A stretch of DNA of 46,379 bases from Candidatus Thorarchaeota archaeon (GCA_048884965.1 JBHLQH010000027.1:1-46379), one strand, 5' to 3'; shown: positions 6,449 to 37,582, numbered from the stretch's first letter. Program-made: numbers and translations. The notes: generated from the sequence alone by a model not told the origin.

Positions 6449-6457
6449 GTGAATCTA

Positions 6458-9400: not shown

Positions 9401-9907
9401 AAACCAAAGCAAACTGGGCTCTACGCAATAAGCATCGATATTCCACTATCAATCGAGATGAGTACAGCATATCTAATGGCAAAGGCGACAACCACAAAGG
9501 GAGTAACTCGAGGATCAAAGCGTCTCAAGATCAAAGCTGTTGAGGAAGCGCATTTCCATTTCAGATATATGATAAAGGATCTGAATGGAGTAGAGATCCC
9601 AGGCTTAGTGCCAAGAGTGACTCCAATCAAATTGATTGTCATCGGAAAAGCAACAACAAAGGCACTTGATGAAGTAAAGATTCTTCTACGAGTAATGTCT
9701 CGAAGAAAGGTCATCAAGCTCTTCGAGATTAACTCGATGTCTATCAAGAAAAGAAAGGATAGCGAGTTCGAAGTAGAGATCCCATGGACAACTCCCTCCG
9801 TCGATATGGTTACTGGCTATTACTTAGAAGCGCTTGTAGAACAGGGAGGCCAGATTCTACCGGATAGGGCGGTAGAACAAACATCAAAGCAGTTCACAGT
9901 GTACTGA
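6458..9907 (+). CDS. Glutamate-cysteine ligase family 2 (GCS2/YbdK-like carboxylate-amine ligase) fused to ~6 C-terminal beta-sandwich repeats
   Basis: GMEVELQV, LEIATPPC, GEHHHF, ALTVNSPF and TIELRVSDTQ match GCS2 motifs (GxExEl, EixTp, hHvH, AlsaNSPF, tiEvRxxD). The remaining ~670 aa is beta-rich. Start GTG 6458 follows an AGGTGA SD. Confidence 0.85.
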   Translation: MSEKPTTMKEMQLPFPHGMEVELQVIKRDGSWIKGEEVLEVFDRLVANAISLLEKRIRVSPVPSVKKKYRRSTQTEEGERGSRVVSSYEDPHGEVKEFTLVGHDPNVTSLTWILEIATPPCTTLEELAWWVQSLIAISYESIPKDANITLISTGLNPAQEYLKNLSFGEHHHFLGPDTSEKVRIGVYNMVRNFVPHIIALTVNSPFENKRTTDEVWVDDDGKTRAPKCKRSIRLVNNTTQLGPTNEFEFIPYLEKPDEEGFARHVNRSYARMVDLYPFTRLQTIELRVSDTQLSIPRRIAIALLLQTLSLKAKRMIESGQEIPDVGASSLAANRESAVEAGLWGPFRPAKENPDSEFIKIYNRQINDDGSINEKKRNRFMGDAINSMLYIIREELEELDLIDNPFMQPILVSIYGSEFFDAKTTGADFQLDVYAKSELNLVVLLRKLSEITRECCINWLYDPLEGTPQLPTWLCWWKGIEPEIVTDKERIFAGQRAHVSISIRNALDKAVEDLTLTCTIEDSDRHVVERKLIPITRIESGEIFIEHLEFDTSKGIPAYNILAAVSLAGQEVHVSGSIQTFWTKAAIRPTTTTIFADGATQIPFSGEIETSYPESEFLAVKVSVLSPSREKILAEVEQPLSVEAGGVISFKNKDFPPLVVPDDLSEGVERCVLKISLTDSDGEEVTANTSKPFYIGFVRKGPKIILEANIKENYKPGETIVGKIELKAKGESIAKDASASIIFLADSGRRHSITTLPVKDLAKGAIEFEWRIPPIHSENTAERTGVIRVELLDGIEVISSTQSERFKLEHVGVRISIDSLRIPSATEVGAKITGWLRVRRNTESGEKATLDLTFRYPDGTEIHALSQPIRQSRNLSVAFGPIEVPSSESGERFDQVDLEAKISYGGIVIDSRVETLRLDGVEEPHLVRISFSGVPSFVTPDETLHSTIHVSNLSSEEVPCMLAAQLDTIKGAIPIWQKEITLKPKQTGLYAISIDIPLSIEMSTAYLMAKATTTKGVTRGSKRLKIKAVEEAHFHFRYMIKDLNGVEIPGLVPRVTPIKLIVIGKATTKALDEVKILLRVMSRRKVIKLFEINSMSIKKRKDSEFEVEIPWTTPSVDMVTGYYLEALVEQGGQILPDRAVEQTSKQFTVY

Positions 9908-10181: not shown

Positions 10182-11114
10182 ATGTTGGAGTTGCTAACAA
10201 ATAGCGTAGTTTCAGGACTAATCGTAATGTCCATCCTCGGAGCCCTATCGTATAAGCTCCACTTTGTAGATGTATCTGGCTTAATCAGTGCATATGTTGT
10301 TGGAGTAACGGTATGGTATACCGGAGGAGTGGCAGCATTTACGATCCTTTTATTCTTCTTCCTAGCTTCAGGAGTTGCAACGAAATTCAAGTACAAAGCA
10401 AAAGCTAAACAGAATCTTGCTCAAGAGGGAAAGGGAAAGAGATCTTGGAGGAATGTCTTCGGTAGCGGAGTCATTCCAATGTTCTTCTCAATAGGCATTT
10501 TCATCTTTAGTCCGACAGGACCATTCAACTTGACCACAGATCCATTCTTCTCATTTGCTATGTTTGGAGGCTTTGTAGGATCTGTTGCTACAACTACAGC
10601 AGATACATTGGCAAGTGAGATTGGAGTTTTCAGTAAGAGCAAACCCCGCTTGATCACCAATCTTCGTCGTAAGGTTCCAAGAGGAACAATTGGAGCAGTT
10701 TCTCTTCTTGGTGAAGGGGTTGCAGTATTTGCTGGTATAATGATTGGCGTACTAGCTCTCATCTTTGCGTTCGCAGCACCAAGTATGATTCCTGTCTATA
10801 ACATCGAACAACTCTTCATCATCTTCCCGTTGTCAGTTCTTACAGCTTTCATCGGATGCAATCTAGACAGCTTATTCGGTGCGGTACTTCAGAATAGATT
10901 TGTTTGTGAGATATGTGGTGCTGTCACAGACAAAGAATTCCATTGTGACTATGAAACCAAGTATGTTGGTGGTTTCAGAAGCTTCACAAATACCTACGTG
11001 AACTTCGGTTCCTCAGGCATGGGAGCGACATTAGGAGTCGTCCTTGGGGCGGGACTATTTGTGTGGATTCTAGGAGGACTATTCTTCTGGATTCTTGCCT
11101 CATCTAGCAACTAG
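10182..11114 (+). CDS. DUF92/TMEM19 (VTE6-like) integral membrane protein
   Basis: LFFFLASGVATKFK, RSWRNVFGSG, ADTLASEIG, VPRGTIGAVSLLG, DSLFGAVLQ and C-terminal CxxCG...HC are DUF92 hallmarks. Confidence 0.9.
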   Translation: MLELLTNSVVSGLIVMSILGALSYKLHFVDVSGLISAYVVGVTVWYTGGVAAFTILLFFFLASGVATKFKYKAKAKQNLAQEGKGKRSWRNVFGSGVIPMFFSIGIFIFSPTGPFNLTTDPFFSFAMFGGFVGSVATTTADTLASEIGVFSKSKPRLITNLRRKVPRGTIGAVSLLGEGVAVFAGIMIGVLALIFAFAAPSMIPVYNIEQLFIIFPLSVLTAFIGCNLDSLFGAVLQNRFVCEICGAVTDKEFHCDYETKYVGGFRSFTNTYVNFGSSGMGATLGVVLGAGLFVWILGGLFFWILASSSN

Positions 11115-12430
11115 ATCTTTGCTCCTTTGCTGGTGCATACGAGATATGCATCCTCAAGATTGTGTGAAGCACTGAACGAGGATATCAGATTCGAAATGAA
11201 GAGGGACTCTAGATCTTCAGACGAACTGCGATTCTTGACTACTTTCATTGTGTCTGAGTCTTTTAGAAGCAAGCCATATTGATTTCGATCTATCTTGATG
11301 AGAACCTGTGCATTCGTATGCTTCCTCAAGGCAGCAACGGGTTCCCCTTTCAAAACCTCTCGTGCTACCTCCCATTCCTGCGGCGAGATTAGTAGCAAAT
11401 CAATCTGAGATAATAGAGGGGTAATTCGAGATAATCCAAGTTTCCAATAATGCTGAGAGCAGCGAAATATGGTGGGAATTCCATTGGCGTAGCAATAGGA
11501 TGCAATCGCTAGAGCGATTTCTAGAAATACCTCTCCAATGTAAACAGCTTTGCTCCTTCGGACAATATCCCATGGGATTTGGGAGGGGGAAGTCAGAGAG
11601 AGAGAGAACCTTTCATCAATCCCTACTAATCGTTTAGGGCTTTTTCCATCATCGATTATTATGGTTTCATTCGTCCGCTTTTCTGATTCTATGGTAAAAT
11701 GCCGCACATCAATCCCCCTAGATATGAGTGATGTCAGAACCTTCCACCCATTTAGGTCATCGCCAATCGAAGATACGAGAACGACTTTGTGATTCTGGTC
11801 AGCAAGAGCCATTGCTAGCTCAAGACTTGGCCCTCCTGGATAGCGATGTGGCATCTTACAAGTCACTTCAGTTCCATCTTTAGAGAAAGGTTCGCTCTGG
11901 ATTTCTGTGAATAGGGAAGAAGCACCTGTTATGACAAAATCAGGAGTTTCATAACTGGTGGATCCTTCCACCATGCTCTTCGCTCTCACACGTGTTAGTA
12001 TCTCAAAAAACACTGATTCCTCCAGACTATGCTCTCGATAGAATTGCAGCAAGCTAGTAAGATAGTCTTCTAGTAGAGATTCTGTCAATTCACTCACATC
12101 AGCAGGTAGTCCCTCTGTGAAGAAGCGAACCAGACCCCATCCTCTCTTTGTCAATTCGTGGAAAACGACGCGCTTTCCACGGTCTATCTTTGACCCTGTT
12201 TCAATGAGACCATATGAGCGTAGAACGTCCAGATAACGAAGTATACTCTTGTTCGAATGAGAAAGATCGCTGACCAAATCCCTTTGCAATACCGTGCCGT
12301 TTTCTTCGAAACGCGGGAGAACACTCGATGCAATACGGGATGCCAGTACATCCTTGATGAATGAAACACGTACCTCATACTCTGATGGCATCAATAGAAT
12401 ATACGGCCAGAAGTTATCGAATTCTGTCAT
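11111..12430 (-). CDS. Winged-HTH transcription regulator fused to a degenerate PfkB/ribokinase domain
   Basis: N-terminal wHTH (QRDLVSDLSHSNKSILRYLDVLRSYGLIE...FHELTKRG). PfkB N-motif YPGGPSLELAMALA...SSIGDDLNG is present, but the catalytic DTxGAGD is replaced by SSEDLES. GGAGG 8 nt upstream. Confidence 0.75.
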   Translation of the reverse strand: MTEFDNFWPYILLMPSEYEVRVSFIKDVLASRIASSVLPRFEENGTVLQRDLVSDLSHSNKSILRYLDVLRSYGLIETGSKIDRGKRVVFHELTKRGWGLVRFFTEGLPADVSELTESLLEDYLTSLLQFYREHSLEESVFFEILTRVRAKSMVEGSTSYETPDFVITGASSLFTEIQSEPFSKDGTEVTCKMPHRYPGGPSLELAMALADQNHKVVLVSSIGDDLNGWKVLTSLISRGIDVRHFTIESEKRTNETIIIDDGKSPKRLVGIDERFSLSLTSPSQIPWDIVRRSKAVYIGEVFLEIALAIASYCYANGIPTIFRCSQHYWKLGLSRITPLLSQIDLLLISPQEWEVAREVLKGEPVAALRKHTNAQVLIKIDRNQYGLLLKDSDTMKVVKNRSSSEDLESLFISNLISSFSASHNLEDAYLVCTSKGAKI

Positions 12431-12459
12431 CTATCAGGCCTCCATGAAGTTAAAATATG

Positions 12460-12513
12460 GGTTTGTCTATCGCCTTAATGTACAAACCTACCTATGTAGT
12501 TTACTGAACTACA
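12460..12513. promoter_or_regulatory. Candidate operator palindromes in the divergent promoter
   Basis: TGTAGTT-tactg-AACTACA (12495-12513) is a perfect 7-5-7 inverted repeat. GGTTTGT-N15-ACAAACC (12460-12488) flanks a TATA-like CTTAATGT. Confidence 0.55.
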
Positions 12514-12527
12514 CAAGAGGGATTCTA

Positions 12528-13301
12528 ATGGGTGAATACTTCAAAGCAGGAGCCTATCCTTGGGCGTTAACAGGAATATTCGCAGCACTTCATCTCGTTA
12601 TTACGCTAATACCTTTCAGTCTAAGCGTGAGTGGGACTGGAGCAATATCGTTTGGTATGATTTCAGCAGCTATCGTCGGTTATTTGCTGGGACCATTCTA
12701 TGGTACTCTCTCAGTATTGATAGGTTCATACATTGGCATTTTCATTAATCCTGAAATTGCAGTTATTGGACTAACAACTCCCATAGCTACCGCAGCAGGC
12801 GCGCTTGCTGCTGGCCTAATTAGAATAAAGAAGGCTGAGTTCGTCGTTGGTATCTATATAGTTGCAATGGTGGCATATCTGGTAGGACCAATCGGAATAC
12901 TAGTGCCAGAAGCTTTATGGTTCCATGTAATTGTATTCCTCTTCTCACTTCTTCTAGTGCTTCCATTTACAAAGAAAAGACTCAACAATGAGATAGGTCT
13001 TTCGAAATCTACTTCGACACGCGCTCTATTTCTTGTTGTATTGATTGCGGTATGCGTTGACCAAGCAGTAGGCTCAGCTATTGGGTCTTTCTACTTGATA
13101 TATGTCGCAGGTCTTGATATAGCACTTGTATCCACATTTTGGGTTGCAGTCGTATTTGTCTATCCTGTTGAACGAATAATTGGAGCATTGATAGCAACTT
13201 TCATTCTAGCTACGCTAATCGAAAGCATCTCCTCAGGATACTTCAGGTTACCAGGCACACCAGCAGAAGAAGATCTGAATCAAGAACTCGAAATCGAATG
13301 A
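12528..13301 (+). CDS. ECF transporter S-component-like membrane protein
   Basis: ALTGIFAALHLVITLIPF...IVGYLLGPFYGTLSVLIG has the AxxxA and GxxxGPxxG S-component pattern, with 6+ TM segments. Start ATG 12528 (the track extension overlaps the opposite gene). Confidence 0.75.
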   Translation: MGEYFKAGAYPWALTGIFAALHLVITLIPFSLSVSGTGAISFGMISAAIVGYLLGPFYGTLSVLIGSYIGIFINPEIAVIGLTTPIATAAGALAAGLIRIKKAEFVVGIYIVAMVAYLVGPIGILVPEALWFHVIVFLFSLLLVLPFTKKRLNNEIGLSKSTSTRALFLVVLIAVCVDQAVGSAIGSFYLIYVAGLDIALVSTFWVAVVFVYPVERIIGALIATFILATLIESISSGYFRLPGTPAEEDLNQELEIE

Positions 13302-16134: not shown

Positions 16135-17355
16135 TTGTCAGAAACTCGAAGAATGTTGCTGGACTTCGAAACTGATGAAGTCGGACAAAAGGCACGTAAT
16201 GATTCCAAAGTACGAAAAGCTCTAATTAAGGCTCTCACTGATACTTCTGATATTGTAAGGGAACGCGCTCTTATTGCAACTATTGAATTGGGAGACCCTA
16301 CAATCGTCACCGACGTCGCAAAAGCATTGAAGGATGACGATGATGAAGTACGAATCGCAGCTGCAGAGTCTTTGGCATACTATCAGCAACCTTCTACAAT
16401 ACCTACCCTCCTTGAAGGTCTAAAGGATTCCAATACATGGGTAAGATCACACTGTGCAAATGGCCTATCCAAATTAGTTAGCGGTCCAATTTGGGCTCGA
16501 GTCAAGGAGGAAGACGTAGATAGAATCTTGGCGGATTTTCCAGAGATGGATGAAGAACAGATTAGATTGTTCTTAACTAATCTCAAAATCAGGCAGAATT
16601 CTCTTGACAAATTCATGCGGTGGAGAAAAGCCAACTTCGAAGTTGACATAGATACTTCATCTCTTGAGGAGATGGAATCGAAACCTCTCATTCTTGAAGG
16701 TGTTGAACTAGAACCACCAGTGAAATCGAAACCAGCGACTGGAATTTCAGATGATGTTGAACGAATCTTGTCGGAGTTGCCAGCCGACCTTAGAGAAACA
16801 TTACCTGAGGAGGATCTTCGCAGACTGACACCAGCGACAGCAAGAGAACTCGTTGATTCACTACTGGCTTCCTTTACAGATGTTGGAAGAGAAGATTTGG
16901 AGAAAGAGGAACCTGCCAAGAAGAAGAAGGTAAAGGTAACGAAAGTAAAGAAGGTCAAGAAGAAAACAGGACCAACCAAAGAAGAACTGCTTGACCAGAT
17001 TCCTGACGAAGTCAAATCACAAGTTCCACCAGAAGTACTAGCGGACCTTTCACTTGAAGATTTGGAGGCTCTAATATCATCAGGAAGCGATAGCGCAGAT
17101 CTATTACCTGATATCACAGATGAGGAAGTCGTTGAAGAAGAGCCTAAGCCAGAGAAGAAAGAAGTAGAGAAAAAGAAGAAGGTTGTCAGTGGAGATGATC
17201 GCCTTCAAATCCTTATTGATAAGTTTGGAGAAGAAAAGGCAGAGATACTTCGAAACGTTCCTGAAGAGATGCTAGCAGGGATTCCTGATGACCAAATCGA
17301 AGAAATGGACATAGACGCTCTAAAGGACCTTGCTGATGCATTGGAGCCAAGGTAA
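16135..17355 (+). CDS. HEAT/PBS-lyase repeat protein with acidic and Lys-rich C-terminal helical repeats
   Basis: ALTDTSDIVRERAL, ALKDDDDEVRIAAAESL and GLKDSNTWVRSHCANGL are HEAT repeats; TTG start with GGAG upstream. Confidence 0.85.
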   Translation: MSETRRMLLDFETDEVGQKARNDSKVRKALIKALTDTSDIVRERALIATIELGDPTIVTDVAKALKDDDDEVRIAAAESLAYYQQPSTIPTLLEGLKDSNTWVRSHCANGLSKLVSGPIWARVKEEDVDRILADFPEMDEEQIRLFLTNLKIRQNSLDKFMRWRKANFEVDIDTSSLEEMESKPLILEGVELEPPVKSKPATGISDDVERILSELPADLRETLPEEDLRRLTPATARELVDSLLASFTDVGREDLEKEEPAKKKKVKVTKVKKVKKKTGPTKEELLDQIPDEVKSQVPPEVLADLSLEDLEALISSGSDSADLLPDITDEEVVEEEPKPEKKEVEKKKKVVSGDDRLQILIDKFGEEKAEILRNVPEEMLAGIPDDQIEEMDIDALKDLADALEPR

Positions 17356-17361
17356 CGAGTA

Positions 17362-18651
17362 TCACTCGCTACCTCGTATCACAATCGCGAATTCGCTTGC
17401 TAGTCGTCCATACCATTCAAGTAGATCTCGCATGTTGTCTACGTGTCGATAGGTTCCATTGCCATATTGAGAAAGTGCCAGCATCAATTCCTCATCCAAT
17501 TCGCTCCTTTCACCAAGTCCGATGGTATACATAACGAAGCGATTTCTATCTGGAAAACGTTCTTTCATAATCTTGAGAGGAGGGGGACCAGCTGTTGTCA
17601 TTCCATCTGTCAATAGGATTAGCATCGTTGGCTTACTAGGGTCTCCGAAGGCTTCTAAGACTTCACCGGCCTTAGCCAAAGCATTTCCCATATTCGTCAG
17701 AGTCCCTCCCTCTTCAACCTTATCAACTACATGAGTGCTAATAATTTGTAGACCAAGAGCCTTCTCACGTCCGGTACATTCAACAAATGGTTGAACCTCA
17801 CCTGTATCAGCGTTGAGAAATGTCATCTCAGCAACTTCCTTCTCGAACGTAATGACTCCTACCTTCTCACCATATCCACGACCAACCTTCTCAGCTAGGT
17901 AAAGCAATACAGCCATAGCTGCTGCTTCAGCTCTACTTACATTTCTTCCCTCGTCGAAACGATCTAAGAAGGCTTGCACTTCAGGATTATCTCCTGCAAG
18001 ATCCTTTAGACCCTCACGTGCATGAGCAATATCCTGAACAGGAACATCAGTTGTTTTCATGGAGCCACTAGTATCGATGCACAGGATTGCATTGAATGGA
18101 GTGGCAATACCAATTGTCTTGAACTGGTAGCCGGTCTTTTCTTTTAGAGCTTCGAACGCCAGCTTGGCAAAACTCTTTCCAGTGAGATTAGGACGAGTGT
18201 TCATAATTTCGACCTTTGCATCCAACTCGGGCCAATTGAAGGACATGCCAGGATATACAAGGCGACCACCAATTAGCTCTTCCAAGGAAGCGACTCTCTC
18301 AGCCGCCTTAGTAACCAAGTCCTCAGTATTAGCATCCTCTGACAGTGGTTTTAGACCAAACTCGACGTATTCCAGTGCAATCATGTCGCGTTCATAGAGT
18401 GTGACTTCGACAGTATCACCTTCCATAAGTAGTGATGCTTCCAGAACCAATGTATCAACGTAGATTTGGTCTTTCGGGACATCGTCACTCTTACGAATCT
18501 CTGCAGCTCCCCAAAAGCTACTCTCAGGATCTTCAAAGATCACAATTGAACCAATCTCTGCATCAAGAGATTCTGCAGTCTTTGGATTCATAGTGGCATA
18601 GCCTCGAAGATCGCCTCCATCCACGATCTCTAGATTTACTCTTCCGACGAT
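17362..18651 (-). CDS. CDC48/VAT N-domain-like + VWA domain protein (intact MIDAS)
   Basis: DLRGYATMNPKTAESLDAEIGSIV...QIYVDTLVLEASLLMEGDTVEV resembles the CDC48 double-psi barrel. VWA motifs ILCIDTSGSM, TNMGNAL, LILLTDG, YTIGLG. The track start is GTG 18624; I infer ATC 18651. Confidence 0.8.
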   Translation of the reverse strand: MVGRVNLEIVDGGDLRGYATMNPKTAESLDAEIGSIVIFEDPESSFWGAAEIRKSDDVPKDQIYVDTLVLEASLLMEGDTVEVTLYERDMIALEYVEFGLKPLSEDANTEDLVTKAAERVASLEELIGGRLVYPGMSFNWPELDAKVEIMNTRPNLTGKSFAKLAFEALKEKTGYQFKTIGIATPFNAILCIDTSGSMKTTDVPVQDIAHAREGLKDLAGDNPEVQAFLDRFDEGRNVSRAEAAAMAVLLYLAEKVGRGYGEKVGVITFEKEVAEMTFLNADTGEVQPFVECTGREKALGLQIISTHVVDKVEEGGTLTNMGNALAKAGEVLEAFGDPSKPTMLILLTDGMTTAGPPPLKIMKERFPDRNRFVMYTIGLGERSELDEELMLALSQYGNGTYRHVDNMRDLLEWYGRLASEFAIVIRGSE

Positions 18652-18722
18652 TGTAATTGCCTCCGTTGCTCCTTATTTTATTCTGCTCGTATATAGATAT
18701 AAAGAATCGTACATCCTCCTTC

Positions 18723-20228
18723 TTATCCGAATAGCTTAGGAACATTATCCAGTAATGCTTCAAGGTCCTTTTCATACCTTGTATTTTTCGATAGTTCTTC
18801 AATGACCGATTCGCCAACCCTATGTGTGGCGTAATTCGTCGTTCGTAGAGCATTTTCACCGCTGGTCCTCACAGATGCAATAGTGAGGATATCTCCAGGA
18901 TTCTCTCTAACCCAAAGGTGAATTTCATAGTTTGCTTCCTTATTTTTCATTGTAAGGATATATGAATCAAGATGGACTCCGTTATATCCTCCTTCTTGAA
19001 CAGTGCGAATACGCGGCCATGTATGTCGAGGGGGTATCATTAGGTCAAGTGAGGATAGATCCCATTCCTTCTCATGCATTGTTTTGATCAAAGCATCTTC
19101 AAGTGCTTTTCTTGAGCTGCCATTGTTATTGGGACAGGCTAATTGCTTTGACGACCTCTTGCTTTCTAGACTAGAATTGTATGGCTTTTGCACTAATGAG
19201 AGTGTGTTGCCACCAAGAATACGTTGTACATCTGAAAGATCCCCTGGGAATGCTCGAGAAAGTGATGCAATAATGAGTTCAGCGGCTTGAACGGATAGAA
19301 AGCTGTAATCAGTAGCAAAAAGAAGGCTCTCAGACCATCTCTTTGTGGATTGGATTCTTTCTGAAGCCATCTCGAACAAGAGCGGGATATCCTGACCATG
19401 CAACGTAGATGTGTCAGCAGAGAAGATAGGATCGTTGAGAATGTCATATAATTTTGGAGAACCGGGGCTCATGCCGGCGTGAGCAAGGATAATGCGAAGG
19501 TTTCCAATTGCCTGAGAGTACTGTGGTTCCTCTCTCATGATTTTCACTAGATGTCTAATTCTTGTGACTGTGCGTATGTTTCGAGTGTCGAATAATACTG
19601 GAATCCTTAGTTGAGCTGCTCTATACACAACTCGACGGACAAGATCATCCTCTAATTCATCTATGAATAACTGTGCCAATGGATGTAGCTTTAGCCCTCG
19701 GAGTCCAAGATCAAGGATAGCCCTATCAAGCTCTCTGACAGCAAGATTGGCATCACCATTCCGACCATCCATGGGGTCAACCCGCGCAAATCCGATGAGT
19801 CTGGAAGAATGAGGAGCTCGAGTCGTCCATCCCGCTATTTTATCGTTTGATATTTTGAATGAAGGTGATCCTTCAGGACCTTGCTTGGCATAATCGTCAG
19901 AGTAAGGAAAAACAATAGTTCTGTCCACTAGCCAGCCATGTTTCATTCTCTCCCAGCTATCTCGACTTGAAAACAGATTTGAAACAAAGGGAGTTGGAAT
20001 TATCTGTATCGGCTCGAATAACAGTTCATCATTACCTATGGCTTTCTCAGCAATACGTTTCATTTCGAACCATAGAAGCTGATAGAAGTCATATGCACCT
20101 CCAGGTGTATTCCTATGGCTCTTCTCGCGCCCCATATGATGATGTGCGTCTACCAAATAAAGATGAAAGAGATCATCCTTTTTGATAGATTGTTCTGGGA
20201 TATCTTCAATGGCTCGCACCACGAGCAT
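18723..20228 (-). CDS. Amidohydrolase (Amidohydro_2-like TIM barrel) with C-terminal extra domain
   Basis: VDAHHHMG, GLRGLKLHP, ILAHAG, LLFATDY, RILGGN. Confidence 0.85.
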   Translation of the reverse strand: MLVVRAIEDIPEQSIKKDDLFHLYLVDAHHHMGREKSHRNTPGGAYDFYQLLWFEMKRIAEKAIGNDELLFEPIQIIPTPFVSNLFSSRDSWERMKHGWLVDRTIVFPYSDDYAKQGPEGSPSFKISNDKIAGWTTRAPHSSRLIGFARVDPMDGRNGDANLAVRELDRAILDLGLRGLKLHPLAQLFIDELEDDLVRRVVYRAAQLRIPVLFDTRNIRTVTRIRHLVKIMREEPQYSQAIGNLRIILAHAGMSPGSPKLYDILNDPIFSADTSTLHGQDIPLLFEMASERIQSTKRWSESLLFATDYSFLSVQAAELIIASLSRAFPGDLSDVQRILGGNTLSLVQKPYNSSLESKRSSKQLACPNNNGSSRKALEDALIKTMHEKEWDLSSLDLMIPPRHTWPRIRTVQEGGYNGVHLDSYILTMKNKEANYEIHLWVRENPGDILTIASVRTSGENALRTTNYATHRVGESVIEELSKNTRYEKDLEALLDNVPKLFG

Positions 20229-20373
20229 GGATTCATTGCACCTCTATCGCATCGAAGGGAAAAGACAGGTGATAAACTATTGCACTATTGCATCTTACTG
20301 GAGATAAGGGATGCAGTAGGCATAAATTACTTCATACCATTTCCAAAATGCTGAGAGTAGGAAGATACCGATA

Positions 20374-22995
20374 ATGATTGTTGCTGAGGATCGAATTACA
20401 AATGAAGTAGTAAGATTCCTAGTCATCGATGCCTATGCCAAATTGGGTGTTGTTCAATACGGCTCGGATATTCAGACCTTCGATTCACAGCGAATGCTTA
20501 GATATTACGCACTCGTCGAGAACCAGCTTTTCGACTATGCTAGTCGTTATCCAGAATCATTTCAATATCTTCCAAGAAGAGCCTATTCGTATCTGTCAAA
20601 GCCACCTTTACTAGGAGATCTCTCAACTAGCTTGGCGACAACCAGCGAAACAAGGTGGTTCTCGGATCAATTCGTAATACATCCCTTGACGGAAATATCT
20701 GCAAAACCACTTCCACGCTATCAGCAGAAAACAAACATTGAATCATGCTTTAGATGGACAACGCAATCTGAAGACGCAATAAGAATGTATAATGTCCTTG
20801 ATCTTGATGTAGAAACGTCTGAAAGAATAAGATGGGCTGTGTCAATTGATGCAAGGAATCTCTCAAGAAGTGTGAAAGGAGGCGTGCGAAAGGCTCTCCT
20901 AGACGCAGTCACTGAACGACTACCAATCTTCATTCGCCTTGAAGATAAGGATGAGATTTCCTCCTTATTGGAATGGCTTGTCCTCATTAAGGAGTCAGGT
21001 CACTCTAGACCTTCGATACTGCTCTCAGTAAAGGAACAAAGAGGATGGGAGAACGAAATACTGAAGCTCCTACAAATGCCAGGAGTACACTTGCTCACAT
21101 CAGGTGCGTCAATTGTTTCCCTTTCAACGATTATAGGTGGATTGAAAGGCCAACTCGAATCAGAGCTTTGGTCAGAAAAGCTGGTCTTTGCGAGCTCATA
21201 TCCAGAAACCCAGATGGGCGATAGCATCACTGAGATTCTGAGTTTCCTGTTGAGTAAGAACCTCGGAGCGGGGCGAGATGAGATTCAGAATATCTTGGCT
21301 GGCAATTTGATTAGAATATTGTCCCCGATCTCGAAACAGCTTCGAATGGAGTATAGTGAATCTTCACTCTTTGCGGAAGGGATTTTTGGAAAAATTGCTT
21401 TACGTGAATTCCTTCGACTCATAAGATTGCTCAATGCACAGATGCAGATTCAGATTATCTCAGCAGATATCATTCCAGATAGTGCTGAAGGGCAAATTGA
21501 GCTCAACTCAGTCATTCTTACAACTCGTAATCTGAAATCCAAGTTTGATAGGAGGTTCATCCTTCAAAAAGAAAGAGACGAATCCTTGAGAATAGTAGGA
21601 TGGAAGAAGATGTTTGACGATCTCTATTCATCGAAGAATTGGATAGCTCTTAGAACCCAGATACGAGCTTCTGATAGAGGGCCATCCTTGGACGCTCCAA
21701 GTCATATTTCTACATTCAATAGGAGAGTTTTGGATATCCTTGGCATAAGAGATGCTACATCTGTCATCTCATCGTTACATTACCAAATCCAAGAGAACTC
21801 ACTTGAGGTTGGAAAGATTTCTCTTTGCCAAGAGGATATCAGAGCGATTGGCGTAAAAGAAGGAGAGGTTGTAACTGTATTAGATGCTGAATCTGATCAT
21901 TATTGGGGAGCGATGGTTGTTCAGACATCTGAATGCCCTACAAGAACGGTTGGCCTCCCTAGTGCGGAACTCCGAGTCTATGGCCTAAGTAATGCATCTC
22001 AGATAGATTTGGTGAAGTATAATGATGAAATCATAGATAGTAAGAGTATACTCCTTACTTATCGGAATACTCCGGGGTATACGGATTCGGAGATATCTGC
22101 TTATTTGCATATGGCAAAGGGAGAGATTGAGTCGTCAATCCAGAGCAAAATAATAGGGATTGGAACTCGTTTTGTTACAGCGAATGGACTCGAACTAGAA
22201 GTGAAGAGAATAGATCCGAATGTTCGCAAGGGTCAGCTAGTTTGTGCCAGAGATTCAGATGTTGAGATTCTCCCAATAGAATTTCTGAATGAACTGAATC
22301 TGATTTTGGTCGCTGCCAACGGAAACCAAATGATGGTCCGAGATGCCAGCGTTCGAAACCCGAGGGCAATTCAAAAAACCTTGGAAACACTCTCCAACGA
22401 CTTACCAGAGATTGCCACTTTCCTCTATGGCATACGAGGAACTCTATCCAGGTGGAATGTTGCTGCAACGATTATCCTTGAGATGGTCAATAGCTTCAAG
22501 CACAATAAATCAGAGGGGAAATTCGGACTCGTTTTTGTAGATCGACTCCCACATAAATTTACAATACAGAAGAACCTAGAAACTCAGGAATACATTAAAT
22601 TCAATTCAGATATGCAGAATGATGAGATATTCAAATCACTTGTTTATTCCGTCATCGACGCAGGAGAAATATCTGATGAGCCAACTGACTCGAAAGCACT
22701 TTTCAGGTCTGCTGCTGAATTAACTGAGGATTTTGGAGTAGAAAGACCCACACTAATGCTTCTGATGCTTTCCGAAATGGATGATATCGATGATATAGCT
22801 CCTTACTTACAGGTGCTTAACTCGACAAGAAATCTCAAACTTCTCATTATTGGCATTGGAAACCAGTTTGGAAATCTACACCGTCAAAAAATCAAGAAGA
22901 TGCTAGATATCGATGTCCAATTCATCAAGGAGTATTCTTTATTCGATCTTCGGGGTCTTCTCATATCCAAAATACGGGAACTTTGCCATTCTTAG
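20374..22995 (+). CDS. Fusion of degenerate amidohydrolase + CDC48-N-like + degenerate VWA domains
   Basis: IDAYAKLG, LVFASSYP and QNILAGN are degenerate amidohydrolase motifs. ISLCQEDIRAIGVKEGEVVTV...YWGA is CDC48-N-like. NLILVAANGNQM...PTLMLLML...LLIIGIG is a VWA without MIDAS. Confidence 0.75.
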   Translation: MIVAEDRITNEVVRFLVIDAYAKLGVVQYGSDIQTFDSQRMLRYYALVENQLFDYASRYPESFQYLPRRAYSYLSKPPLLGDLSTSLATTSETRWFSDQFVIHPLTEISAKPLPRYQQKTNIESCFRWTTQSEDAIRMYNVLDLDVETSERIRWAVSIDARNLSRSVKGGVRKALLDAVTERLPIFIRLEDKDEISSLLEWLVLIKESGHSRPSILLSVKEQRGWENEILKLLQMPGVHLLTSGASIVSLSTIIGGLKGQLESELWSEKLVFASSYPETQMGDSITEILSFLLSKNLGAGRDEIQNILAGNLIRILSPISKQLRMEYSESSLFAEGIFGKIALREFLRLIRLLNAQMQIQIISADIIPDSAEGQIELNSVILTTRNLKSKFDRRFILQKERDESLRIVGWKKMFDDLYSSKNWIALRTQIRASDRGPSLDAPSHISTFNRRVLDILGIRDATSVISSLHYQIQENSLEVGKISLCQEDIRAIGVKEGEVVTVLDAESDHYWGAMVVQTSECPTRTVGLPSAELRVYGLSNASQIDLVKYNDEIIDSKSILLTYRNTPGYTDSEISAYLHMAKGEIESSIQSKIIGIGTRFVTANGLELEVKRIDPNVRKGQLVCARDSDVEILPIEFLNELNLILVAANGNQMMVRDASVRNPRAIQKTLETLSNDLPEIATFLYGIRGTLSRWNVAATIILEMVNSFKHNKSEGKFGLVFVDRLPHKFTIQKNLETQEYIKFNSDMQNDEIFKSLVYSVIDAGEISDEPTDSKALFRSAAELTEDFGVERPTLMLLMLSEMDDIDDIAPYLQVLNSTRNLKLLIIGIGNQFGNLHRQKIKKMLDIDVQFIKEYSLFDLRGLLISKIRELCHS

Positions 22996-23246
22996 TGCTT
23001 GGAAAGTCGTTCAATGGCAGACAGTTGTACATCTAGCTCATTTGCTCGAATCTCAACATCATCTATGAGCATCTGGATCTCATCAAGTAGTTTCACAATC
23101 CTCGCATTCGTATCGTCTTCAAGGGTTTCCCGTTCCTTGCTCATTTCGAGAATAACTCCTTCAATCTTTCGAATTCTTTTGTTCACATCTATAAGATTCT
23201 CCAACGACTCAAGGAAGAACGCGATATCCGTTTCCAAAGTACTCAC
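22992..23246 (-). CDS. Small coiled-coil protein
   Basis: 84-aa heptad-rich ORF; its GTG start overlaps the upstream TGA stop (GTGA coupling). Confidence 0.7.
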   Translation of the reverse strand: MSTLETDIAFFLESLENLIDVNKRIRKIEGVILEMSKERETLEDDTNARIVKLLDEIQMLIDDVEIRANELDVQLSAIERLSKH

Positions 23247-24424
23247 CCGATTTCTTCACAGATTTTTGCAATTCTCTTCTCAAGAAGGCTTAGACGTTCA
23301 TGCAAAGCCTCTAGCCGGTCAACTGTTTCTTTGACTTTGGTTTCAATATGATTTGCCTTACCCTGAGGCTCCTCTTCCTTCTTAGTACTTAGGCGTTCGA
23401 GTTCACCCAAAATGGCCTCAGCCCTCTCTATTCGCCTCATTGTATCATTTACGTCAACATCTCGAAGAATCCATTCCACCTTCTGAAGCAATTTTCTATC
23501 CTTCGAAGAGATCTTCTTTTGGTCATCATCCTTAATGGGGAGGAATTCTTCTTGTACTATGACCTCTTTGGTTTTGCTTCCTGGAACTACTATCTCTTCA
23601 GATTTTGCCCATAATGGGACGAGAACTTGGGTAGCAAATGTCTCAAGTTGCAGTCCCTCAGAAATTAGAGAAGTCATTAGATCCCTAGGACCATCCCAAA
23701 GGAAGGTTTCAATCACCGCATTTCGCAGGAGAAAACAAGCAGCAACAGGGTCTCGAACTAGGAGATTCTCAATCATTTCCAGTACCCAGCTACTAAAGAG
23801 AAGTGAGAGAGCAACGCTTTCTTGAAGAGCACCTTGTTTGAATAGAAGGATTTCGTCATCATTTGCATTAAGCAGGTCGGGAATCCAAGCCCGAGGGTTT
23901 GCCCAATTCGCAGGCATTCGAAGTGTAAATCCATGAAAGATGTCTCTATCGGCACTTTGCTCTATGATGTGCTCTATATAATCAAATTGTGGCTCGCTGA
24001 ATTCTCCATCAAGCTCTATTCCTAAATCGTACTTCAGCACCAGCCGAAGGATATCATGAGGAGAATAGCCTGCGACTCTGAAAGCTATAAAATCCCTGAC
24101 AACAGCATCGTTCTCCTTACTGACCTTGAAAGCGACTACGAACTTCTCCTCAAACAATCCACACTCACCGTAGATGATGATACCTGAATCGCCACTATCA
24201 GATAATCCCCTATCAATTACTGAACGTATTGTTGAACTCAATGGAATGATGTAATCAACCTGATTTGGCTTGGAGCGTAGAGAGCCACTCAAACCTTTTG
24301 ACACAATCCCTGTTTCTAGCCATCCGGGCTTCAGTTGATTGCCAATGATTCGTACAGCAAGATATCCCTTTACTTCATTGTTCGAATACATTGATTGAAG
24401 GCGCGTAGTGAAGTTTTCTGACAG
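23243..24424 (-). CDS. Hypothetical protein, alpha/beta N-terminus and C-terminal coiled coil
   Basis: Long ORF in an operon with VWA genes. The track start is ATG 24391; an in-frame CTG at 24424 lies 8 nt after GGAGG. Confidence 0.7.
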   Translation of the reverse strand: MSENFTTRLQSMYSNNEVKGYLAVRIIGNQLKPGWLETGIVSKGLSGSLRSKPNQVDYIIPLSSTIRSVIDRGLSDSGDSGIIIYGECGLFEEKFVVAFKVSKENDAVVRDFIAFRVAGYSPHDILRLVLKYDLGIELDGEFSEPQFDYIEHIIEQSADRDIFHGFTLRMPANWANPRAWIPDLLNANDDEILLFKQGALQESVALSLLFSSWVLEMIENLLVRDPVAACFLLRNAVIETFLWDGPRDLMTSLISEGLQLETFATQVLVPLWAKSEEIVVPGSKTKEVIVQEEFLPIKDDDQKKISSKDRKLLQKVEWILRDVDVNDTMRRIERAEAILGELERLSTKKEEEPQGKANHIETKVKETVDRLEALHERLSLLEKRIAKICEEIG

Positions 24425-24427
24425 ACT

Positions 24428-25543
24428 TTATACCTCCGATTTTATCCAATTATCAAGTTGATTTTTCGCGTGATCAAGTTGAGCAACTCGATCAATCGTT
24501 ATTAGTATCCCGTTTCCGTTTGCAGCAATTGCTTGGAGGAGGGAATCATCAATTCTAGATCCTATACCAACACATGCAAGATATATCCCTTCAGTTTCAG
24601 ATAATAAGTTTCTGACAATTGGAACTGGATTGATACCATGTGAATATGAGCCACTGGAAAATAAAATGATGAAGGTTGGTACAGGATTTCGCTCATAGGA
24701 TCTCTTTGCTATTGCGACTCCAGTTTCTAAAGCCAGTGTCAAATCAGATGCATTCCCCTTATGATCATCTACACAGTGCAAAACCCATTTCTCGTATTGC
24801 TCAATTACATCATCAGTCAACATGATTGTATCATCTTCTGAGAAGTCTGATACATTTGTAGAAAACGCAAGAGGCGCGAAAATAACATTCTTGCCAGTGT
24901 ATTCTCGAGCCAACGCAATTACTAAACTCTGAGAGATTTCATACCTAGCTGATGGACCAGAGTCATTACTTTCCAATGAGATGTCCCTTTTTTGTGATGA
25001 TGCACCGATCTCCATGAGTGTACACAGATTGAAGTTATCTGCAGATCGTGCTGCGCGAAGATAGATTTTCATGACCTTTCTCCATGCAACTCTTGCTGCG
25101 TTGAGGTCATTTGACAAGGGGACCATCGCAGAAGGTGTGACTGCAACTCCAAGCTCTTCAAGGTAGAACGTCTTGTCTGTTTCCAGAATGAGCCCATCAA
25201 TATAAGCTTCCAAATCCTCGATCTTTTGAGAGAGAGCTTCAACAATTCGACTTGCATCAAGTGCCCTCTTGGAGGAAATGGATAGCACCAATTCCGTGCA
25301 TATTGGAATATCATCCTTGACTCTTTCGATAGCGATCAGATCATCTGATTTCAGATCTAGAAAATCAAAGTGACGCTTGTCAAGAATGATTTGCTCCTCA
25401 AGGACACGATCGTTCTTCTTTAGAGTTGCGAAAACAGATGCTTTCTCAGCTATCAGCTTGACTGTCCCAGTTGGCATATCAAGGTTGTCTGACACATAAG
25501 AGATGCCTCTCTGATTTCGACCTCTTATGGCCTGAAGCTTCAT
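24428..25543 (-). CDS. CDC48-N-like + degenerate VWA protein (paralog of 17362-18651)
   Basis: QIILDKRHFDFLDLKSDDLIAIE and LEAYIDGLILETDKTFYLEELG align with the paralog. VWA FNLCTLMEIGAS, FIILFSSG, LACVGIG...LLQAIAANGNG has lost the MIDAS residues. Confidence 0.75.
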   Translation of the reverse strand: MKLQAIRGRNQRGISYVSDNLDMPTGTVKLIAEKASVFATLKKNDRVLEEQIILDKRHFDFLDLKSDDLIAIERVKDDIPICTELVLSISSKRALDASRIVEALSQKIEDLEAYIDGLILETDKTFYLEELGVAVTPSAMVPLSNDLNAARVAWRKVMKIYLRAARSADNFNLCTLMEIGASSQKRDISLESNDSGPSARYEISQSLVIALAREYTGKNVIFAPLAFSTNVSDFSEDDTIMLTDDVIEQYEKWVLHCVDDHKGNASDLTLALETGVAIAKRSYERNPVPTFIILFSSGSYSHGINPVPIVRNLLSETEGIYLACVGIGSRIDDSLLQAIAANGNGILITIDRVAQLDHAKNQLDNWIKSEV

Positions 25544-25556
25544 TTGATATTACCGC

Positions 25557-26684
25557 CTAGTACACACGAGTTGTGTATATTTTGCTAGCAACTGCCTTTG
25601 ACCCGTAGTAGACCTCTACTTTGAGGCTTGCTTTCTCCTTCGATTCTGTCATTGGAACAAGATTTAGCTCTAACTGTCGGTCATCTTTCGGACCTATCTC
25701 ATGCTGCTCGTTTGTTATCTCGGATACACCATCTTCTGTAGCTAGGGTTACTATCACACGGATTCCTATCACACTAGAACTTGGATTCTTCACACGTAGC
25801 CGATAGTTGAAAGCCCTTCCAGCAATTAGTGCATCAGGCACATCTCCCAAAGAAACCGCAATGCCGATCTTATCTGCAGTGAGCGGTCGTCCTCTTGGCC
25901 ATCGTGGAATTCTCTCAAGTTCAAGCAATCTTGAAAGAGAGATCTTCATCTCTCGAAGTTCCATTCCGAGCTGAGAAGCAGCAGTACCAATATCAAAGGA
26001 GCCATCATTTGACTCATAATAGTCCAGCACTCTGCGGTCGGATTCAATCAAGTCGCTCATGCCTTCTAATATCTTTAGAATGGCTTCTGGAAGTTGATGG
26101 GCTTGTGATAATGAGAAATAATTCCCATTCTCGATGGACTCAGCTATTCTTCTGAAGGATTTTTCCACAAGGGGATTGCATCCTATGATAAAAGCAAAAA
26201 CGGTAGAACCAAAGTCAGTAACTAGATTCTGTACTTCCTTGCAAGGATCATATCCCTTTGGGCATCCATCTGGAAAGTAATCGTCACTCAAAGAATTATA
26301 TTGTCGCCCGTGGGGAGGTGCATCACCAACCAGGAGTAGTACTTTGTATGCGTCCTTATCCCATGAGAGCTTCGTTCTAGCATCATATAACCCATCTGCA
26401 ACAGCTTCTGGTGTGTCACCACCTTCAGATGGTCTCAGTCGAGATATCTCATCATGTACTTCCTTAATTCGCCCAGAGAAGTCGAATACTCGAGTCACGT
26501 ATGTCCTGTCCTGCGGAGGATGATCTCTATAAGATACAATACCAAAACGAATTGTAAGACCTTCAGTCTTCGTTACAATCTTGTCAACAATATCGAACAA
26601 TGAGTCTTTCACTGCACGTATATCATCTTTCATTGATCCAGTGGTATCGACCACAAATGCTACGTCTATCTTAGCTGTGTGAAT
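25557..26684 (-). CDS. VWA domain (DTTGSM/GGDxPE/GDAPPH type) + HTH + C-terminal Ig-like domain protein
   Basis: IDVAFVVDTTGSM, YRDHPPQD, GGDTPEAV, LLVGDAPPHG, HTH-like IGTAASQLGMELREMKISLSRLLE, and a beta-sandwich tail. The conserved first strand lies upstream of the track GTG (26654), so I infer an ATT start at 26684. Confidence 0.85.
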   Translation of the reverse strand: MHTAKIDVAFVVDTTGSMKDDIRAVKDSLFDIVDKIVTKTEGLTIRFGIVSYRDHPPQDRTYVTRVFDFSGRIKEVHDEISRLRPSEGGDTPEAVADGLYDARTKLSWDKDAYKVLLLVGDAPPHGRQYNSLSDDYFPDGCPKGYDPCKEVQNLVTDFGSTVFAFIIGCNPLVEKSFRRIAESIENGNYFSLSQAHQLPEAILKILEGMSDLIESDRRVLDYYESNDGSFDIGTAASQLGMELREMKISLSRLLELERIPRWPRGRPLTADKIGIAVSLGDVPDALIAGRAFNYRLRVKNPSSSVIGIRVIVTLATEDGVSEITNEQHEIGPKDDRQLELNLVPMTESKEKASLKVEVYYGSKAVASKIYTTRVY

Positions 26685-26792
26685 CCCTATCCACCCCGTG
26701 TCTGTCTAATCCTATGAGCAATTAAGCCTTTTCAGAGTAAAGAACAAAGGACATTTTAAAGGGACCGCTGAACAAAGAAATGCGTGATTCCT

Positions 26793-27173
26793 ATGAGTGA
26801 GAGCGATATACCGATTATAATCGAGTTCGAAGGAAACCTTAGACTCAAAGCGGTGCTTGACAGGGTCAAAGCACCTCTGATTATTGAGGAGATCAAATCA
26901 ATGCTCCCAGTGGAAGGAAAAGCTGCTTTCTTACGGGGCGAAATGAAAATCACTCTGGGAATAAATAAAGGAAATCTGAAGCCAACAAAGAATGTGAAGA
27001 GAGGAGAGATTGCCTACATGCCTCTTGGTGATACGCTCTGTATCTATCTTCAAGATATGTCCACATTCAGTCAGGTCAATGTCATAGGTCATGTGACCTC
27101 AGATGAATCATTGCTAGATAGCTTGACAGGTGTAAGAAGAGGTAGCCAAGCCAAGATTTCACTGGATGCGTAA
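26793..27173 (+). CDS. Cyclophilin-like fold protein (DUF369/TM1367-like)
   Basis: APLIIEEIKSMLP...GEMKI...VKRGEIAYMPLGDTLCIYL...VNVIGHV. Confidence 0.8.
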   Translation: MSESDIPIIIEFEGNLRLKAVLDRVKAPLIIEEIKSMLPVEGKAAFLRGEMKITLGINKGNLKPTKNVKRGEIAYMPLGDTLCIYLQDMSTFSQVNVIGHVTSDESLLDSLTGVRRGSQAKISLDA

Positions 27174-27180
27174 GATGATA

Positions 27181-27732
27181 TTACAGCCTCTGTAAGCTCT
27201 TCAGAAGAGCCTCATTCTCATCCGCCTCAATCTCTGAGGGATCGACTACCATCCCAGACTCATATGTTTCAATGATGACTTCTAATCCAGAATCAGCGAC
27301 TCGCTTGAATCCTTTACTGGAGAGAGACCTTATGCGTAGCTGAGTTGTATTGAACTCTGTCTTCTCTGCGCTGATAGTAGGCTGAACATCAAGACGAAGC
27401 TTTGATTTTGTCCTTCGCAGATTCTCTTTCGTTTCAGCCAACTGCGTTTGAAGTTCCTTTCGCTCGCATCTTTCATTTTCAAGTTGCATCTTGATATCTT
27501 CATACTCGCTTCGCTGAACATAGTTCTTTGTCCTATCTAGCCAGACAACCGTTGTTCCATTGAATCTTCGATTTGTTGTAACCTGACTTAGCGCTTTAAG
27601 AACAGCAACAACATCATAGACTCTTCTCTTTGGAACCCCCAATATTTCAGCAAGCTCGTCGCTCCGAATCCCCTCTTCCCCGGCTTCTTTCAGGTATGAT
27701 ACGGATTTTCGAGCAAGTTCAACAAGTTTCAC
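27181..27732 (-). CDS. E2F/DP-like winged-helix transcription factor with coiled coil
   Basis: LAEILGVPKRRVYDVVAVLKAL...VVWL matches the E2F/DP RRxYD recognition helix and downstream Trp, followed by heptad repeats. Start GTG 27732 after a GGGGTG SD. Confidence 0.7.
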   Translation of the reverse strand: MKLVELARKSVSYLKEAGEEGIRSDELAEILGVPKRRVYDVVAVLKALSQVTTNRRFNGTTVVWLDRTKNYVQRSEYEDIKMQLENERCERKELQTQLAETKENLRRTKSKLRLDVQPTISAEKTEFNTTQLRIRSLSSKGFKRVADSGLEVIIETYESGMVVDPSEIEADENEALLKSLQRL

Positions 27733-27828
27733 TAGTGCACCCCACACAGATTCCGATGATAGACTCCTCTATGCAATCTTCTAATCATTTCTCAGAGGTA
27801 CTATTTAATGATTTGTGTTATCTGCCTA

Positions 27829-36687: not shown

Positions 36688-36732
36688 TTTGAATCATTCC
36701 AGATGATGAGTTTCTCGATTACCCTTTTGCTA

Positions 36733-37503: not shown

Positions 37504-37582
37504 GGATACCACTCGTTGATGAATAGGAGTACCTAAGAGATTCACTTTAATTCTATTGGATGCGACACATATCTGATTAAGA

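Follow-up and report, generated by a model that had tools for sequence, protein, structure and literature searches.

The DNA analysed here (the window) is a stretch of 46,379 nucleotides from contig C27 of a Thorarchaeota (Asgard) assembly that is 4.09 Mb in size and 96% complete. A preliminary description of this DNA, made from its sequence, had drawn attention to a gene cluster at positions 16135–26684 as a system of eight genes. Only seven credible genes were found in the cluster, which is the Thorarchaeota version of an undescribed Asgard-wide module of three components and is made up of a conserved core and lineage-specific additions. The first core component, here called N-VWA (P0001, 429 aa, bases 17362–18651, minus strand), joins a Cdc48-type N domain to a von Willebrand factor A (vWA) domain. 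The second is an Amidohydro_2 enzyme (P0005, bases 18723–20228, minus strand), encoded directly upstream of N-VWA and in the same direction. The third, a ligase of the YbdK/GCS2 fold with beta-sandwich repeats (bases 6449–9907, plus strand), is encoded outside the cluster, 7.5 kb from the N-VWA gene. Every named source among the closest homologues of the central protein of the cluster was a member of the Thorarchaeota, and no published description of a module composed of this ligase, hydrolase and N-VWA was found in the literature searched.

N-VWA, the hydrolase and the ligase

N-VWA begins with a Cdc48/p97-type N domain (residues ~1–180), composed of a double-psi barrel and a second lobe, and continues into a vWA domain with a complete metal ion-dependent adhesion site (MIDAS), namely D193-x-S-x-S, T319 and D349. 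Among 43 family members, D193, S195 and D349 were invariant while S197 and T319 were present in at least 90%. The vWA domain also bears a conserved loop that includes K255, R258, G259, G261 and E262 (GRGxGEK, 256–261). An AlphaFold2 model, for which the alignment of these 43 diverse family members was used, had a mean predicted local distance difference test score (pLDDT) of 90.2 and a predicted template modelling score (pTM) of 0.82. The two-lobed N domain, whose failure to model had been named beforehand as an outcome that would speak against the preliminary description, was recovered in this model of N-VWA.

In a Foldseek comparison of the model with known structures, residues ~1–185 were aligned to the isolated p97 N domain 5epp_A over 189 columns with an E value of 5.7e-10, a template modelling score normalised to the target (TMt) of 0.72 and a root-mean-square deviation (rmsd) of 4.0. 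Two further isolated N domains, 5x4l_B and 9uw1_B, gave TMt values of 0.73 and 0.70, and the matches to p97 and CDC48A, spanning 171–189 columns, took in both lobes. When the PDB was searched with a profile built from the N domain only, designed double-psi barrels (5e-6), yeast Cdc48 (1.5e-4) and VAT (1.5e-3) were detected. The Pfam family CDC48_N (PF02359) was matched by 17 of the 43 family members, at best with 1.7e-6; N-VWA from the window, which also matched VWA_2, scored 17–21 bits and remained below the cut-off of 35.1.

The likeness to the N domains of Cdc48, p97, VAT and NSF lies in the double-psi barrel and the second lobe. In those proteins the N domain is followed by ATPase rings, whereas in N-VWA a vWA domain is found instead. 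There was no AAA+ D1 or D2 ring downstream of the N domain, and the vWA domain is the last in the protein. The model, the Foldseek matches and the profile therefore bear out the earlier proposal that the N domain is of the Cdc48/p97 type but is not joined to an AAA ring. The vWA protein ArnB of the ArnA/ArnB pair (PDB 5a8j and 8s05) differs in that it has no Cdc48-type N domain. ArnA, the partner of ArnB, is a protein with an FHA domain and a zinc ribbon and is not an enzyme.

The start codon of N-VWA is uncertain. The ATG of a homologue with 93% identity (MEAITIV...) is replaced by ACG here, at bases 18666–18664. The start at 18651 given in the preliminary description corresponds to ATC, and use of the first canonical start, a GTG at 18624, would cost the protein the first beta-strand of the barrel. 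A metagenome protein, P0166 (693 aa), is a natural fusion of N-VWA with a second vWA domain of the VWA_4 type, which ties the VWA_4-type protein found in the Thorarchaeota order (bases 25557–26684, see below) to the module in another lineage. No Pfam domain was found in the N-terminal extensions of fused family members.

The hydrolase matched Amidohydro_2 (PF04909) with 35.7 bits against a cut-off of 26.4 (E value 1e-8). Like the enzymes of this family, it carries the signature of a TIM-barrel metal hydrolase, in which the ligands are H-x-H, His and Asp. D27, H29, H31, K180, H182, H250 and D307 were invariant in 27 hydrolase sequences, and the catalytic set of the enzyme in the window is intact. 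It differs from other Amidohydro_2 enzymes in having a C-terminal extension of ~130 aa that belongs to no known family, in being predicted to be bound by a vWA protein and in occurring also as a fused dead copy.

Predictions of a complex between the hydrolase and N-VWA gave values of 0.74, 0.74 and 0.73 for the interaction prediction score from aligned errors (ipSAE), whereas the best of three controls scored 0.00. For comparison, 58 of 80 solved complexes and 2 of 110 mismatched pairs attained this ipSAE mark. At least 76% of the contacts were common to the runs, and the partner pLDDT was at least 78. On the N-VWA side, the predicted interface takes in both lobes of the N domain (residues 67–76, 101–108 and 135–146) together with the GRGxGEK loop. 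On the hydrolase side it includes residues 33–34, 184, 253–256 and 310–314, which flank H29/H31, H182, H250 and D307, respectively. No MIDAS residue was included in the predicted contacts. These predictions support the formation of a heterodimer by the hydrolase and N-VWA.

The ligase consists of an ATP-dependent carboxylate–amine ligase domain of the YbdK/GCS2 fold (residues ~1–500) and ~650 aa of beta-sandwich repeats. The NCBIfam YbdK family was matched with an E value of 3e-13, which is far under the equivalog cut-offs. Pfam GCS2 (PF04107) gave 20.7 bits for the ligase in the window and 31–35 bits for its relatives, the cut-off being 21. The AlphaFold2 model of the ligase domain had a pLDDT of 91.4, and the leading Foldseek matches were 1tt4 and 1r8g (E value 1.5e-13, TMt 0.78), with glutamate–cysteine ligases next and then Dop and PafA at ~1e-6. 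E23, E25 and D293 were invariant, and E118, H173, H175 and R290 were nearly so. The fold and the conserved acidic metal ligands are shared with the YbdK/GCS2 ligases represented by these two structures. The ligase domain of the window protein differs from them in its length of ~500 aa, which includes inserts, and in most lineages the beta-sandwich repeats are added. Both the hydrolase and the ligase have kept their catalytic residues, and N-VWA its MIDAS.

Distribution of the three core genes

The N-VWA family is of modest size, and a total of 165 representatives were recovered at an E value of 1e-3 or below among 1.84 billion sequences. The named sources were Thorarchaeota, Odin-labelled or 'Asgardarchaeia', Hermod-, Hel- and Promethearchaeota metagenome-assembled genomes (MAGs), as well as one MAG labelled as Korarchaeota. 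N-VWA was ~80% identical across most of the Thorarchaeota genera sampled.

The occurrence of the three genes was examined in 201 Asgard genomes from 27 families (f1 to f27). N-VWA was found in 103 genomes, the ligase in 100 and the hydrolase in 99, and the nine families in which they occurred (f1, f2, f6, f7, f9, f19, f22, f24 and f27) were identical for all three. None of the three was found in the other 18 families. Within f1, three genera (g2, g4 and g7) had none of the three genes, and in f7 and f19 the copy numbers rose jointly, reaching four of N-VWA, two or three of the hydrolase and two of the ligase.

Gene order was compared using all open reading frames (ORFs) in 17 related loci of 17–21 kb each, 16 of them from eight families and one (L001) from a complete genome (CP070761.1). 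The hydrolase gene was directly upstream of and co-directional with that of N-VWA in f1, f2, f6, f7 and f19, and was 3–7 kb away in f22, f24 and f27. The ligase family recurred in eight loci, mostly with a length of ~1000–1400 aa and with 586 aa in f24. Its gene was convergent to and touching that of N-VWA in f6, f7 and f19, and in the f22 locus L027, giving the order hydrolase, N-VWA, ligase with the ligase facing the other two. In f24 and f27 it was a few kb away. In f9, a ligase of ~570 aa without the repeats was followed immediately by the hydrolase, and N-VWA was 10–57 kb away on the same contig.

The three genes have been gained, lost and duplicated together. Despite the kinship of the genomes, the joint absences that recur within a single family, along with adjacencies that shift from one pair to another, speak for a functional triad, which is kept on an all-or-none basis in about half of the Asgard genomes sampled.

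Degenerate paralogues and lineage-specific genes

Two further proteins in the cluster are related to the core. The first, an 873-aa protein (bases 20374–22995, plus strand), is a fusion of a dead hydrolase half (residues ~1–340) with a MIDAS-less half resembling N-VWA (~460–873), and is divergent from the active pair. Its C-terminal half was linked to N-VWA of the window by BLAST with an E value of 3e-5, and with relatives from other genomes the link ranged from 2e-17 to 4e-23 and took in both domains. Its N-terminal half is a copy of the hydrolase, detected at 8e-4 with P0005 and at 1e-11 to 2e-15 with relatives. The second is a 371-aa paralogue of N-VWA (P0003, bases 24428–25543, minus strand), which matched Pfam VWA. 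N-VWA was linked to it with E values of 2e-7 for the vWA domain and 1e-3 for the N domain, and with relatives both domains were linked at 1e-10 to 5e-12. BLAST within the window and with relatives thus confirmed the earlier view that the three modules are paralogues, and we infer from these comparisons that both degenerate copies carry N domains.

In an alignment for which 30 family members served as the anchor, the MIDAS positions read A/G/Q..T..S in the C-terminal half of the 873-aa protein and E/G/S..S..S in P0003, in agreement with the earlier observation that only the first module keeps this site. The hydrolase half of the fusion has the substitutions H29 to Y, H31 to K, H250 to V and D307 to S. 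Intact frames of 850–895 aa for this fusion were nevertheless found in f1, f2, f7 and f19, and one of 776 aa in f24. A fused dead copy kept intact across families is independent evidence that the hydrolase and N-VWA act as one body, that is, a Rosetta-stone link. Maintenance of a doubly inactive fusion by selection in several lineages fits with a stable complex. P0003 has also lost the conserved K255–E262 loop. It was found with intact frames in 31 of the 60 other f1 genomes, representing eight of 16 genera, and was only 34–37% identical within the genus, compared with 90–93% for N-VWA. This rapid evolution would fit a decoy or a specificity subunit under diversifying pressure.

The remaining genes are additions of narrower distribution. 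The HEAT-repeat protein (bases 16135–17355, plus strand; Pfam HEAT_2, E value 4e-29) has repeats at residues ~20–140 and a long, charged, low-complexity C-terminal half. The 375-aa protein P0004 (bases 25557–26684, minus strand) matched VWA_4 (5e-12) and VWA (5e-10), carries a D-x-T-x-S variant at the MIDAS position and has an uncharacterised C-terminal half of ~170 aa. Homologues of P0004 were found only in L001, L031 and L034, and the same three loci contained a HEAT-repeat homologue at the same position, with none in the loci of other Asgard families. Among the 17 related loci, both genes were confined to f1 and f2. The helix-turn-helix and immunoglobulin-like domains previously attributed to P0004 found no sequence support, an ASH match at an E value of 0.06 being the sole hint.

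The 382-aa protein encoded at bases 23243–24391 (minus strand) has a heptad-rich, coiled-coil C-terminal tail and gave no match in Pfam, NCBIfam or the PDB; a profile of eight homologues found no Roadblock or longin relative in the PDB or Pfam. These eight, 49–71% identical to it, were the only homologues detected, and a further database entry was a 246-aa fragment of the protein from the window itself. The counterpart in L034 was only 24% identical, and L001 lacked both this gene and the 371-aa paralogue. The coiled-coil protein and P0003 are fast-evolving add-ons seen only in the Thorarchaeota family. The ORF at 22999–23334, which would have made up the eighth gene, was discounted; its product is Ser-rich and without a family, and its 3′ part runs antisense over the 3′ end of 23243–24391. 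None of the vWA proteins of the cluster, the hydrolase or the coiled-coil protein belonged to a curated NCBIfam family, and the NCBIfam matches of the HEAT-repeat protein, like those of the ligase, were far under the cut-off.

As an account of what is encoded, the preliminary description was largely correct. The paralogy, the single retained MIDAS, the Cdc48-like N domain and the lack of an AAA gene all held, and its amidohydrolase and HEAT-repeat protein were both recognised by Pfam with the E values given above. The gene count, the two extra domains of P0004 and a second coiled-coil protein, only one being evident, did not. The eight genes also do not form a unit, as the HEAT-repeat and VWA_4-type genes were found in the Thorarchaeota order only, and even some Thorarchaeota genomes lack the coiled-coil gene and the third paralogue.

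Several other genes surround the core. A 229-aa gene (bases 5759–6448, plus strand) with only a weak DRTGG match abuts the ligase gene, its stop lying at the ligase start. Genes for PfkB, ECF S-component, Band7/NfeD and Rce1-like proteins separate the ligase from the cluster, an arrangement that is kept in L001 and L034. At bases 11111–13301, the gene for a 439-aa protein whose C-terminal half holds the PfkB domain is in antisense overlap with the start of the ECF-type S-component gene. To the right of the cluster are a cyclophilin-like gene (bases 26784–27173, plus strand) and a gene for an E2F/DP-type winged-helix protein (bases 27181–27747, minus strand; Pfam E2F_TDP, E value 6e-9, above the cut-off), and both stay beside the cluster in three other genomes of the Thorarchaeota order (L001, L031 and L034). 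A PAC2-family gene, resembling proteasome assembly chaperones, and a TatD gene found at bases 35896–37620 (minus strand) are not linked to the cluster.

Possible functions of the module

The reading that we favour, and to which we give about an even chance of being right, is that the ligase, hydrolase and N-VWA make up a reversible writer, eraser and docking system for an amide-linked mark on a protein or peptide. The ligase would use ATP to activate a carboxylate and join it to an amine, and the metal hydrolase would take the amide off again. N-VWA would hold the hydrolase, with its MIDAS, as a carboxylate-binding metal site, and its Cdc48-type N domain serving to dock the protein or peptide substrate. 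The Thorarchaeota add-ons (the 873-aa fusion, the 371-aa copy, the second type of vWA protein, the HEAT-repeat protein and the coiled-coil protein) may be non-catalytic scaffold or regulatory parts. The pairing of a ligase with a hydrolase recalls the writer and eraser logic of PafA and Dop in pupylation. In contrast to pupylation, the candidate eraser is a TIM-barrel amidohydrolase and not a Dop-type homologue of the ligase, and there is only one ligase-fold gene in each module.

Several points weigh against this reading. Neither a substrate nor a tag gene nor a modification was identified, and the cluster, in which the genes are tightly packed, showed no small conserved ORF that could encode a Pup-like tag. 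In the Thorarchaeota genomes and in f9, one of the three genes lies apart from the other two, and the co-occurrence counts overstate independence because the genomes are related. The ipSAE values express the confidence of the model itself and, as our own alignments were used, their calibration holds only roughly. Moreover, given the small-molecule YbdK ligases, a role in metabolite chemistry fits the data equally as well as the modification of proteins does.

In such a metabolic role, the ligase would make and the hydrolase degrade a metabolite such as a gamma-glutamyl-type amide or a dipeptide, and N-VWA would regulate the hydrolase, cap it as an inhibitor or help to assemble its metal centre. 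YbdK-type ligases have been characterised only on small molecules and have weak gamma-glutamylcysteine ligase activity, and vWA proteins serve as metal-centre assembly factors for other metalloenzymes. The nearest solved relatives of the ligase are indeed YbdK and the glutamate–cysteine ligases rather than PafA, the H-x-H/K/H/H/D set of the hydrolase is typical of metal-dependent amidohydrolases, the predicted position of N-VWA is close to the metal ligands of the hydrolase, and peptide ABC-transporter genes are found upstream of the ligase in the window. A simple pathway would, however, need neither a Cdc48-type N domain nor the ~650 aa of ligase repeats nor the retention of dead fusions. The predicted interface involves no MIDAS residue and there is no linked MoxR-type partner, and we consider a metabolite pathway possible but rather unlikely. 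The preliminary description had instead envisaged a multi-subunit adaptor in which the Cdc48N-vWA proteins deliver substrates to a Cdc48, PAN or MoxR AAA+ ATPase encoded elsewhere. The N domain is of the genuine Cdc48/p97 type, vWA proteins are established partners of AAA+ ATPases (the MoxR systems and Rpn10), and the genome does encode two canonical Cdc48 proteins (contigs C8 and C96) and several MoxR-like ATPases (contigs C9, C10 and C57). None of these genes is near the cluster. The window has no AAA ATPase gene, as had been noted earlier, and hence no MoxR-class AAA+ gene linked to a vWA gene. A BLAST comparison of the Cdc48 of this genome with the ORFs of the window and of the 17 related loci confirmed this for the window and detected an AAA gene in only one locus (L026). 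Cdc48 was present in all four archaeal control genomes, so that co-occurrence cannot support a link. The N domains of AAA proteins serve to bind cofactors rather than to dock onto a ring themselves, and the conserved partners of N-VWA are two enzymes. What stands of that interpretation is a real, Asgard-specific and apparently undescribed system; its AAA-adaptor mechanism received no support and is probably wrong, and delivery to an AAA+ ATPase is in our estimation very unlikely to be the function.

A different comparison arises from the whole N-VWA model, for which 10 of the first 11 Foldseek matches were DEPDC5 or yeast Iml1/Sea1 chains from structures of the GATOR1 and SEACIT complexes (PDB 9v0j, 9xzy, 9o5a, 7t3a and 8adl), with E values of 5e-14 to 1.4e-10 over ~430 columns. 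DEPDC5 starts with a Cdc48-N-like N-terminal domain (NTD), followed by a SABA domain resembling vWA domains and the Sec23 trunk. The order of domains is therefore common to both, a Cdc48-type N domain and then an alpha/beta, vWA-like domain with no ATPase. If N-VWA were a functional counterpart of this NTD-SABA scaffold, it would organise longin and Roadblock proteins together with small GTPases, as a kind of proto-GATOR1. Consistent with this, the neighbours of the N-VWA gene in f9 and f24 include genes for a Roadblock/LC7 protein and for a gelsolin-like protein with two domains (L019:7061–10889, L028:7158–11128, L032 and L033). NPRL2-like longin proteins have been reported in Thorarchaeota MAGs (bioRxiv 10.1101/2020.10.19.343400), and the literature that was searched on GATOR1 and Asgard archaea, which reports longin and NPRL2-like proteins, yielded no archaeal relative of DEPDC5. 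In f9 and f24, N-VWA is extended at its N terminus by a further barrel-like segment and has a long Pro-rich linker, the double-psi-barrel appearance in f9 being judged by eye.

The template modelling scores normalised to the query (TMq) were, however, only 0.34–0.41 for DEPDC5 and Iml1, with an rmsd of ~10 Å, and p97/NSF N-D1 chains were nearly as good (p97 N-D1, 5e-11). In a rigid alignment using VIA-align, a comparison dominated by the vWA domain and so unable to rank DEPDC5, the vWA of N-VWA resembled generic vWA domains and there was no DEPDC5 among the 50 best rows. A profile match to 9xzy (E value 3e-4 for the full length and 2e-5 for the N domain) was rejected, as it was made up of two 12.5-bit matches on a tandem-dimer chain; a single DEPDC5 chain gave only 0.16 with the N-domain profile. 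Pfam IML1 (PF12257) had no match on the cluster at an E value of 10 or below in a whole-genome search and none in an hmmscan of the 43 family members, and Pfam NPR2 found nothing in the genome. The SHEN, DEP and C-terminal domains of DEPDC5 are absent from N-VWA, whose vWA domain has a full MIDAS and is closer to ordinary vWA domains than to SABA. Its universal partners are the hydrolase and the ligase, whereas those of DEPDC5 are NPRL2 and NPRL3, and in the genome studied here the gelsolin-like/Roadblock pair is on another contig (C26:34295–35653). The match is architectural and is accompanied by no link in sequence. A present-day scaffold role of this kind seems to us highly doubtful. It is also quite unlikely, though a distinct idea, that the NTD-SABA half of DEPDC5/Iml1 has its archaeal ancestor in the Asgard Cdc48N-vWA family, with the scaffold of GATOR1/SEACIT, the complex that senses amino acids in eukaryotes, descending from the docking subunit of a ligase–hydrolase machine that handled amino-acid-derived amide bonds.

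The two-domain layout that N-VWA has in common with the front half of DEPDC5/Iml1 makes the question of its origin testable and, if such descent were true, the Roadblock and gelsolin-like neighbourhood seen in some lineages would stand at the beginning of a path to the regulation of GTPases. For biochemistry, concrete constructs are at hand in the predicted heterodimer and the dead fusion that has been retained. If the three core proteins do write, erase and dock an amide-linked mark, they would add a new modification system to those of prokaryotes, and this in the archaea most closely related to eukaryotes, a system that has a ligase of the glutamine synthetase fold, as in pupylation, but an unrelated eraser and a Cdc48N-vWA reader.

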